DNA from: Balamuthia mandrillaris
Taxonomy: Eukaryota
NCBI GenBank assembly: GCA_031835245.2
Contig: JAVKOQ020000001.1
Location: 186,001 to 250,000 of the forward strand
Direction of reading: 5' to 3'
Length of the DNA stretch: 64,000 nucleotides
A program made the translations under genes and the position numbers. The stretch's first letter is position 1. Each line of letters begins with the position of its first letter. Of this stretch, positions 7,961-9,700 are shown one piece after another. Below the pieces are notes generated by a model, which had not been told where the DNA came from, did not search any database, and saw only the letters and a list, made by a program, of their open reading frames with translations.

Positions 7961-9700
7961 CCCCCTCACAGAGGAGGAGGAGGTGGTAAGTGCTTGCAAC
8001 GTAAAAAAGCGGATCAAGATGTTTCGGGCGGCGTTGGCATCTCGATCCGCCTGGTAGCCACACTCGGGTTGAGGGCACCGAAAGGTCTTGTTTCCCCCCA
8101 ACTGGTGGTGGACTTGGCCGCACTTGCCGCAGGTCTTGGAGGTGTATTCCTCATCGCAGAGGCAGACCGTACAGGACGGAAATTGCTTGGCCTTGTTGAG
8201 GAGCCTCTGCCTGAAGCGATAGTGGGACCAGGTGAGCATGGCTCTGGCCGTTCGTGAGCCAATGCGGCGGTGGCCTCGCCGCACCATCTGCTGGCTCCTG
8301 AACTCTGGCAGAAGGATGAGGGAGAAGTTCCTGACCAACCAAGACACGAGCTTCTTGTGGAGGTCATCCACCAGGTTGCGGATCCTCTGGCGAAGCCGAG
8401 CAGCGGCCCTTCGGAGACGGCGCCGTTGTCTGTGGTTGACCTTGGTGCCCTTACTCTGCATGCGATCCAGGCGGTGGCACAGCTTGCCTATCTCGTTGAT
8501 GTCCGCTTTGCCCCACTCGGTGACCTCCCCGCAGCCGTTGTAGGTGGTCATGAATGTGCGCACTCCTGGATCCAAGGCGATGATGCCTGCCTCTCTCCTT
8601 CGGTGCTCACGGGCTTGGCTCTCGCCCATGAGCTTCAAAGGCTGAGGCACGCAGAGGTAGTAATGGCCCAGTCGAGTGTCCTTCACCAGACGAACGGCAT
8701 AGAGCACCTCTGACGGAACTTTGTAGTTCTTGTCCCTCGCTTTGATTCGCGCCTCCCCGAAGAAGAGTTGGCGGATAGAGCTGTTGTGGTTCCACTCCCT
8801 GGCTTGGATGCTGAGAGACTGGCTCTTGTCCTTCCTACCACGGAACTTCATCTGGAATCCAGTCGTGCCTCTGCCCGCCGCCAAGCTGCTTTTCACGCCG
8901 TTGAAGAAATCATCGACAGCGTCACTCCGAATGAATCGAGGAGTTTCCAACACCCACGCAAGGCTCTTGTTCTCTCCCTTGAAATTGCTGTTATTTAGGA
9001 ATTTCTTCCTGACTTGTTCCTTCATCTCATCACGAGGCATTCCTTGATGTTCACGATGGAACTCCACGGCCTTGTTGTAGGTCCATCGTACTGTGCCGAA
9101 CCACTTGGCCAGCGTCTTCTTTTGTTCTGAGCGCGGATAAAGGCGGATCTTCTCCACTCGCCCCACTACCGGTTTCTCCTCTCCGTTCTTGCCTTTTTTG
9201 GTGAGCTGTACGGCTGGGCGAGACGGAACGAGTCCCTCGATGAGGCCTAACAAGCCTTTCTGGTTTTTCTCCTCTTCTTCCTTCTCCTTCTCCTTCTCCT
9301 TCTCCTCTTCCTCTTCCTCTTCCTCCTTCTCCTTCTCCTTCTTCTTCTCCTCCTCCTCCAACACCTTTTCTCCGTTAGGAATGTGCTTGCAGGCGGTGAA
9401 CCATCCTGAACCACAGGCAAAGGGTTCTTCCAAGCACAAGGCTTCCGGGCGTATTAATCTTCTCCCGATTTCGCTGGAAAACTGGTTCCAAAAGGGCTGG
9501 GCAGGTGCAGCCTGCGGCCTACCACGCTTCTGTGCCCTTGCCTGAGGTGCCGCTGGGGCGTTTTCCGCTCTTCTTTTCCGAGTAGCAGTGGAAGTAGCAG
9601 AAGTAGTGGCGCGACCCCCTTCCTTGTGGACCCGACCGAAGTGGATGGCCAACCCGCGAGAGGTAGCAAACTTTTTTCCGCACTGTGGGCAACTTGCCAT
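7955..9700 (-). CDS. Fanzor2/TnpB-family RNA-guided endonuclease (581 aa) with N-terminal C2H2 zinc finger
   Basis: HTH KIRLYP...WFGTVRWTYN. RuvC-I IALDPGVRTF. ILLPEF at the canonical RuvC-II position, with the alternative Glu in DEEYTSKT. Zn ribbon CGKC...CPQPEC. RuvC-III DRDANAARNI. Uninterrupted ORF. Confidence 0.95.
   Translation of the reverse strand: MASCPQCGKKFATSRGLAIHFGRVHKEGGRATTSATSTATRKRRAENAPAAPQARAQKRGRPQAAPAQPFWNQFSSEIGRRLIRPEALCLEEPFACGSGWFTACKHIPNGEKVLEEEEKKKEKEKEEEEEEEEKEKEKEKEEEEKNQKGLLGLIEGLVPSRPAVQLTKKGKNGEEKPVVGRVEKIRLYPRSEQKKTLAKWFGTVRWTYNKAVEFHREHQGMPRDEMKEQVRKKFLNNSNFKGENKSLAWVLETPRFIRSDAVDDFFNGVKSSLAAGRGTTGFQMKFRGRKDKSQSLSIQAREWNHNSSIRQLFFGEARIKARDKNYKVPSEVLYAVRLVKDTRLGHYYLCVPQPLKLMGESQAREHRRREAGIIALDPGVRTFMTTYNGCGEVTEWGKADINEIGKLCHRLDRMQSKGTKVNHRQRRRLRRAAARLRQRIRNLVDDLHKKLVSWLVRNFSLILLPEFRSQQMVRRGHRRIGSRTARAMLTWSHYRFRQRLLNKAKQFPSCTVCLCDEEYTSKTCGKCGQVHHQLGGNKTFRCPQPECGYQADRDANAARNILIRFFTLQALTTSSSSVRGR

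Follow-up and report, generated by a model that had tools for sequence, protein, structure and literature searches.

Does a zinc finger at the very front of a compact RNA-guided nuclease contribute to the work of that nuclease, or is it a passenger? The question is raised by a gene in a 64,000-nucleotide stretch of the Balamuthia mandrillaris genome (contig JAVKOQ020000001.1, positions 186,001 to 250,000; referred to here as the window and numbered from its first letter). A preliminary description made from the sequence alone had assigned the gene to the Fanzor2 family and proposed that the roughly 180 residues preceding its TnpB helix-turn-helix (HTH) form an accessory stretch, containing a C2H2 finger likened to those of R2-type retrotransposons, a nuclear localisation signal (NLS)-like motif, an AT-hook-like motif and a charged linker.

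A Fanzor2 protein with a short, unusual leader

The family assignment is borne out. The best solved relative of the protein is ApmFz2 of mimivirus (PDB 9B0L; E 2.3e-27), and Pfam recognises HTH_OrfB_IS605 at residues 184–214, OrfB_IS605 at 370–460 (below the cut-off) and the TnpB zinc ribbon PF07282 at 493–561. The finger, the RKRR and KRGRP motifs and the E/K tract all lie in one and the same frame as these domains (Table 1). The motif D-X(125-275)-[TS][TS]-XX-C4-X(5-50)-RD, as defined in the available text of PMC3627910, is present as D377, T520-S521, C524 and R553-D554, and the catalytic glutamate E517 is invariant and lies six residues ahead of the zinc ribbon (C524), which is where the available text of PMC13565253 places the catalytic glutamate of Fanzor proteins.

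The extent of the accessory stretch, however, has to be revised. An AlphaFold model of the full protein (91-row alignment, mean pLDDT 81) superposes over residues 67–572 on residues 53–518 of the 9B0L chain (Z 21.7, rmsd 4.2, 427 aligned), whereas TnpB chains superpose on it only from about residue 166–179. In ApmFz2, residues 53–130 make up the Fanzor2-specific N-terminal domain (RuvC-R, thumb) and residues 1–53 a disordered NLS segment, according to the available text of PMC11832414. This domain, which plain TnpB lacks, is present in the window protein: a PFW...W motif common to homologues occupies residues 68–101, W100 is invariant in 21 alignment rows and pLDDT block means run from 75 to 92 over residues 71–110. 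Because the domain aligns from residue 67, about 110 of the 180 residues described as accessory (67–178) are standard Fanzor2 sequence, and what is unusual is confined to residues 1–65. The E/K tract is there as described, but it sits inside the normal N-terminal domain and varies in length, rather than forming an accessory linker.

Comparison with ApmFz2 makes the same point. The two proteins share the WED/REC/RuvC/zinc-ribbon core, the rearranged RuvC glutamate and the N-terminal domain (PMC11832414, available text), and both have a basic NLS-type segment in front of that domain. In ApmFz2, though, residues 1–53 are disordered and the gene lies in an IS607 element with TnpA, whereas the window protein has a C2H2 finger and KRGRP in front, an E/K tract inside the N-terminal domain and an element without TnpA.

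Table 1. Features of the Fanzor2 gene, its element and the surrounding retrotransposon (window coordinates)
Feature	Position	Strand	Basis or remark
Non-autonomous DNA transposon with TIRs, present in many copies and containing the Fanzor2 gene, 2,350 bp	7778-10127	minus	Read ends, depth, terminal inverted repeats (TIRs)
Left TIR, 19 bp, ends in TA	10109-10127	minus	1 mismatch to right repeat
Right TIR, 19 bp, ends in TA; predicted 3' end of guide-RNA scaffold	7778-7796	plus
Predicted omega/reRNA region between ORF end and right end	7778-8010	minus	Local hairpins
Fanzor2 ORF, 581 aa	7955-9700	minus	Single open frame
C2H2 zinc-finger sequence, residues 4-25 (C4, C7, H20, H25)	9626-9691	minus	Pattern, Pfam, look-alikes
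RKRR, likely NLS, residues 41-44	9569-9580	minus	Sequence; position as the disordered NLS segment of ApmFz2
KRGRP, AT-hook-like core without basic residues after it, residues 58-62	9515-9529	minus
RuvC-R equivalent with PFW...W motif, part conserved in Fanzor2 N-terminal domains, residues 67-107	9380-9502	minus	Alignment and model
E/K tract, in-frame microsatellite linker, residues about 115-145	9266-9358	minus	Length varies among copies
Basic segment before WED/HTH, likely thumb equivalent, residues 159-178	9167-9226	minus	Aligns with ApmFz2 91-168
RuvC triad D377/E517/D554 and C-terminal zinc ribbon, intact	8039-8572	minus	Invariant in 91-row alignment
Retrotransposon 282-codon ORF1-like frame	6931-7776	minus
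Retrotransposon endonuclease-like frame	6216-6767	minus	By eye, no Pfam match
Retrotransposon reverse transcriptase (RT)	3912-6113	minus	Pfam
Retrotransposon poly-A	near 2458

The finger and its look-alikes

The leader finger has the classical C2H2 spacing, C-x2-C-x3-F-x5-L-x2-H-x4-H, and residues 3–25 match Pfam zf-C2H2 at a sub-threshold 15.6 bits (E 0.022; cut-off 25.2 bits). None of 50,000 shuffles of residues 1–65 produced the C2H2 consensus, and in the six frames of the 64-kb window the pattern is found only twice, one of the two being the Fanzor2 leader; given these two results, the pattern is more than chance. When residues 1–110 were compared with 1.84 billion representative sequences, 186 matches were obtained, 150 of them listed. 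Among the matches listed, and copies of the family aside, the highest scores go to C2H2-type fingers from a wide range of proteins. The best single-finger look-alikes are identical to the leader finger at 13–16 of 22 residues; Pfam was run on 60 of the 148 new look-alike proteins.

The likeness to R2 did not find support in these comparisons. The F-x-T-x-x-G-L-x-x-H of the leader finger presumably resembles the N-terminal fingers of R2, and the nuclease protein of R2, itself a mobile element (a non-LTR retrotransposon), likewise carries an N-terminal CCHH finger, but the finger subtype of the window protein occurs in many unrelated proteins. RT-bearing proteins account for none of the 148 look-alikes, in a search where a protein with one finger hardly scores enough to appear, and none of 20 long candidates scored. 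Among the PDB matches, 60 of 107 were inspected and include no R2 chain; the comparison with R2 was made through these matches. The available text of PMC11204384 describes the R2 architecture as a finger followed by Myb, RT and restriction-like endonuclease domains, with the fingers working together with Myb. Pfam finds no Myb, RT or restriction-like endonuclease domain in the Fanzor2 ORF.

The KRGRP motif is weaker evidence than the finger pattern, its RGRP core appearing in 636 of 100,000 shuffles (0.64%), and there is no Pfam AT-hook match at E<=1 in the ORF. The AT-hook consensus is an RGRP core with basic residues on both sides; here the core and the upstream Lys are present and the QAA that follows is not basic. 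In the full AlphaFold model residues 1–63, for which there are no aligned relatives, have pLDDT <50, and a single-sequence model of residues 1–45 contains no helix (pTM 0.29).

The leader in relatives

Among the best 120 of 288 homologues, the finger is found in one (P0003) and KRGRP in two (P0002 and P0003), both of them B. mandrillaris proteins. No finger is present in the N-termini of the 117 non-Balamuthia homologues, many of which are front-truncated, nor in the 39 non-Balamuthia homologues that have at least 140 aa before the HTH, and at none of 160 related loci does any forward frame contain the C2H2 pattern within 1,200 nt upstream. When residues 1–110 were used for a region search, the two Balamuthia clusters were the only finds among 119 candidates. 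That a module has been added, as had been suggested, is upheld for the leader of finger, NLS and KRGRP, which is a lineage-specific addition, present in sister copies and absent in relatives.

Long leaders are in themselves usual in Fanzor2, with a median of 159 in-frame codons at the 105 of the 160 loci that have at least 700 nt of flank and a matched HTH start (near-duplicate loci included), and Fanzor2 N-termini are described as disordered (PMC10432273, available text) and as highly variable (PMC3627910, likewise). A TnpA motif occurs at 74 of these 105 loci and at 72 of the 74 it lies in the same shifted frame overlapping the leader, near-duplicates again included. A profile of such tnpA-overprinted leaders matches 35 of the 39 non-Balamuthia homologues with at least 140 aa before the HTH; on the window protein its score is 3.8 bits, and the match is confined to the PFW motif. 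Because overprinted leaders are usual at this position and absent in the window protein, residues 1–65 occupy the place of the relatives' tnpA-derived sequence. Inspection by eye had suggested that residues 66–107 overlap a leftover of TnpA in a different frame, which the TnpA profile did not support. As a separate observation, the overprint on tnpA in IS607-type relatives (for example L001, L007, L083 and L135) takes in the structured RuvC-R segment too.

The nearest relatives are IS607-type Fanzor2 and pro-Fanzor loci of giant viruses, phages and metagenomes, with 41–50% core identity; they share the PFW...W motif but have their leader overprinted on tnpA, and none has a C2H2 finger. Alignment scans gave relatives only 25–53% identical (best 80 of 96 and best 80 of 477), and no close relative came out of metagenome and viral contigs when these were scanned with the one protein. 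In a quick tree the window protein has no supported sister, and its core lies about 0.8 changes per site from the nearest relative.

The element that carries the gene

The preliminary description had missed that the vehicle of the gene has TIRs and lacks TnpA. One DNA run and three RNA runs were mapped on positions 2000–11000; reads come loose sharply at 7778 and at 10127, and the flanks beyond are mixed. A TIR match of the kind found at these ends arises by chance at a mean of 0.01 per shuffled window. Summed contig depth, which is not a copy number, is 5,586–13,471 inside the element against 27–636 outside, and 12 near-identical named family proteins are found on 12 contigs, named Balamuthia family proteins being 85–95% identical.

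Hallmarks of IS607 were not found: the element has no serine-recombinase TnpA (best score −1.3 bits, six frames against a profile of 74 TnpA sequences, no trace) and it has 19-bp TIRs ending in TA. Such TA ends point to a Tc1/mariner-type transposase, and no partner transposase was found in the 57 of 93 long frames of the window that were scanned, nor was an empty site seen. IS607 elements, by contrast, are without TIRs and end in GG (PMC13565253, available text). TA is present at both ends of the main element and of a 52-bp mini-element, from which we infer that it is probably the target duplication of the Fanzor2 element.

The element fits the class of Fanzor2*, that is, of TIR-captured Fanzor2, and is apparently unreported for Balamuthia. 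The Fanzor2* of Chloropicon primus and of molluscs (Yoon et al. 2023, PMC10711439) likewise travel in a TIR cut-and-paste vehicle and not in IS607; the Balamuthia element differs in having an amoebozoan host and a finger, the available text of that account naming other hosts and mentioning no finger. ‘Balamuthia’ is absent from the searchable supplement text of PMC10711439, PMC10530073 and PMC10432273, and ‘C2H2’ from that of PMC10530073 and PMC10432273, figures excluded in each case. In the open literature, with Repbase and subscription papers outside the scope, neither a Fanzor with a C2H2 finger nor this Balamuthia family turned up.

The role of guide-RNA scaffold predicted for the right end is taken from the available text of PMC10711439. 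Hairpins across the end of the ORF are more stable than expected over 7930–8000 (z −2.34) and 7880–8010 (z −2.72), and the 243-nt right-end region as a whole is not unusually stable (z −0.76).

Further traces of the family lie elsewhere in the window. A right-end remnant at 16279–16345 has 55 nt at 93% identity to the right end of the element, perhaps with a short left-end piece; the mini-element, at 17178–17229, consists of two TIRs around a T run and has a 10-bp direct repeat outside the TA, which the main element lacks; and at 47093–47299 on the plus strand lies a decayed piece of a Fanzor from this family that has lost internal sequence (83% nucleotide identity over 64). To judge by reads that come loose at 9661 and at 9527, other copies have internal deletions as well. 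The segment just upstream of the ORF (9742–9779) is replaced by a longer one in many copies, both in the three RNA runs and in NCBI models, and there are at least two 5' subfamilies of the element. A viral TIR match (L161) was discarded as a relative, being a bare 19-nt chance match with no further similarity.

The host of the insertion is itself a multicopy non-LTR retrotransposon (about 2458–10800, minus strand), with the Fanzor element near its 5' end. Given a TA target, the retrotransposon frame hits a stop exactly at the insertion point. The window also contains long open frames without a Pfam match, at the thresholds applied, at 58083–60785 (901 codons), 14717–16144 (about 475) and 26098–27540 (481), all on the plus strand, the first of them in an unusually AT-rich stretch of 27–39% GC.

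Sister copies, reads and gene models

The preliminary description had named two things that would speak against the finger: transcripts that start or splice downstream of it, and its loss from homologous copies. Three RNA runs, chosen by species label, place 266 reads on 9370–10135 (123 + 92 + 51; 3–5% of each run), and variants were listed from a threshold of 3 reads from 2 starts. No listed variant affects M1, C4, C7, H20 or H25 (pooled depth about 30–39), in keeping with a finger conserved among copies. As for transcripts, the runs contain no splice joint or gap at 9626–9700, but the reads reveal no start: because they cross both element ends and come from both strands, they could stem from read-through or from DNA and do not demonstrate a dedicated mRNA.

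Could the finger nevertheless go untranslated? An in-frame TGA immediately precedes the ATG at 9700, so an upstream start is impossible without splicing. Translation would have to begin at an upstream ATG, of which there are examples at 9983 and 10050–10056, with a mini-intron removing the cysteine pair; a pyrimidine-rich stretch near 9850–9950, a repeat at which reads were skipped, could be a 5' intron. Six of the 12 NCBI-annotated copies are indeed modelled to start upstream, skip the CxxC and keep the second half of the finger, but two start at MASC with the full finger; of the others, one is in another frame and three start downstream. On the window DNA the skip would need a GT-AG intron of 13 nt, which is implausible because it is too short, the three RNA runs have no joint or gap over the finger, and a perfect C2H2 pattern right after the ATG would have to be a coincidence. 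We take the skip for a gene-caller artefact and consider an untranslated finger very improbable.

Certain signals in the reads were set aside. Read mapping skips repeats, and splicing is not readable in the E/K tract or at 9835–9914; 21 RNA reads seem to jump 116 nt across the E/K tract, a likely artefact since reads are cut at that repeat. One-base deletions in A/C runs of the X1 contigs are likely errors, absent from the Illumina RNA reads (9615, 9672). A sense-strand skew over the finger in the three runs was discounted, the skew being absent elsewhere and the strandedness of the libraries unstated. A soil run (X18) reveals no divergent relative, because its two 151-nt pieces match the window exactly.

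Codons 1–110 contain 16 variant sites, and the only indel listed in the ORF is an in-frame 3-nt deletion, with no frameshift. Seven leader variants are non-synonymous and three synonymous (pN/pS 0.8, p 0.49, n=10), against three of each in the RuvC-R segment (pN/pS 0.27, p 0.11); in this small sample (n=10) there is no sign of purifying selection on the leader. The leader ratio would suit a finger that is a passenger, left by a captured host gene fragment that gave the promoter, ATG and NLS to a young, recently amplified family, as would the facts that the relatives all work without a finger and that no donor can be identified among the look-alikes, which are C2H2 fingers of a generic kind. 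Moreover, little time has tested the finger, because the copies are 85–95% identical at the protein level. On the other hand, all four ligands are preserved, along with the two residues of the finger's hydrophobic core, in a protein whose own core has diverged by about 0.8 changes per site from its nearest relative and whose adjoining N-terminal domain is heavily remodelled, and only three variants fall inside the finger: V24 (silent), I19V and R15H, codon 15 being His in all 30 reads and Arg in the window. We consider a passenger finger rather unlikely.

What the leader may do

At helix positions −1, 3 and 6 the finger has Thr, Gly and Ile/Val, and position 2 varies between Arg and His among copies. 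Base-reading C2H2 fingers typically carry Arg, Gln, Asn or His at −1, 3 and 6, and by this usual code the lone finger would be a poor base reader. For that reason a weak tether or a passenger is likelier than a specificity module.

A finger plus an AT-hook is, all the same, a recognisable DNA-binding pair, which counts for the idea, put forward in the preliminary description, of a leader that binds the element ends or alters targeting. On this reading the finger and KRGRP would recognise a particular sequence, in the TIRs or in DNA next to the target motif, or else would bind the partner transposase. The leader appears when the vehicle changes from IS607 to a TIR element, and in B. mori R2 a single finger contacts DNA sequence-specifically, some other R2 fingers contacting mainly the backbone (PMC12180492, available text). 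Yet the R2 fingers work with Myb (PMC11204384, available text), while the leader has a single finger with neither Myb nor a second finger and with helix residues that are not of base-reading types; the flanks at the left end, as seen in loose read ends, differ among copies beyond the TA, and other accounts of Fanzor2* mention no such finger in the available text (PMC10711439). Specific binding appears improbable to us.

The best reading, which we hold with middling confidence, is that the leader was captured as a start and NLS segment and that its finger adds a weak auxiliary tether to DNA, without deciding which target is cut. A non-autonomous cut-and-paste transposon would have captured an IS607-type Fanzor2 and lost tnpA, a new 65-residue front (start codon, C2H2 finger, NLS-like and AT-hook-like motifs) replacing the tnpA-overprinted leader. 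A transposase encoded elsewhere would move the element into TA sites. RNA from the right end, including the TIR and TA and followed by flank as guide, would then direct the nuclease to the emptied donor site, where it would cut beside a TA-containing motif, and repair would copy the element back; for this donor-site cutting the TnpB/Fanzor homing model serves as the analogy (PMC13565253, PMC10711439, available text of both). The leader would supply the start codon and the nuclear import lost, or needed, once tnpA had been shed, 21 of 22 tested Fanzor N-termini having acted as NLSs according to the available text of PMC10530073, and the finger and KRGRP would form a weak, largely sequence-independent tether to DNA or chromatin.

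A two-module version, in which the finger and AT-hook tie the nuclease to the element ends or extend its target motif and the locus is a third independent capture, we also regard as a distant prospect. Were it true, this would be a natural nuclease with dual recognition by protein and RNA, and a Fanzor domain gain caught in the act.

Significance

The finger-bearing Fanzor2 is a real lineage-specific variant of a known system, and its capture by a TIR element is as notable as the finger. Fanzor2* have been proposed as intermediates between bacterial-type Fanzor2 and the larger Fanzor1, with two cases described in the available text of PMC10711439. The Balamuthia element probably adds another, this time from an amoeba; its gene is intact, its copies are many and short derivative elements accompany it. 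The locus shows what replaced the tnpA-overprinted leader after capture, namely a eukaryotic start/NLS segment with a DNA-binding motif of a folded type. If the finger contributes to binding, a compact RNA-guided nuclease would here have been given an accessory module for DNA binding by nature; should it prove a passenger, the locus would still be useful for studying Fanzor capture and target motifs.
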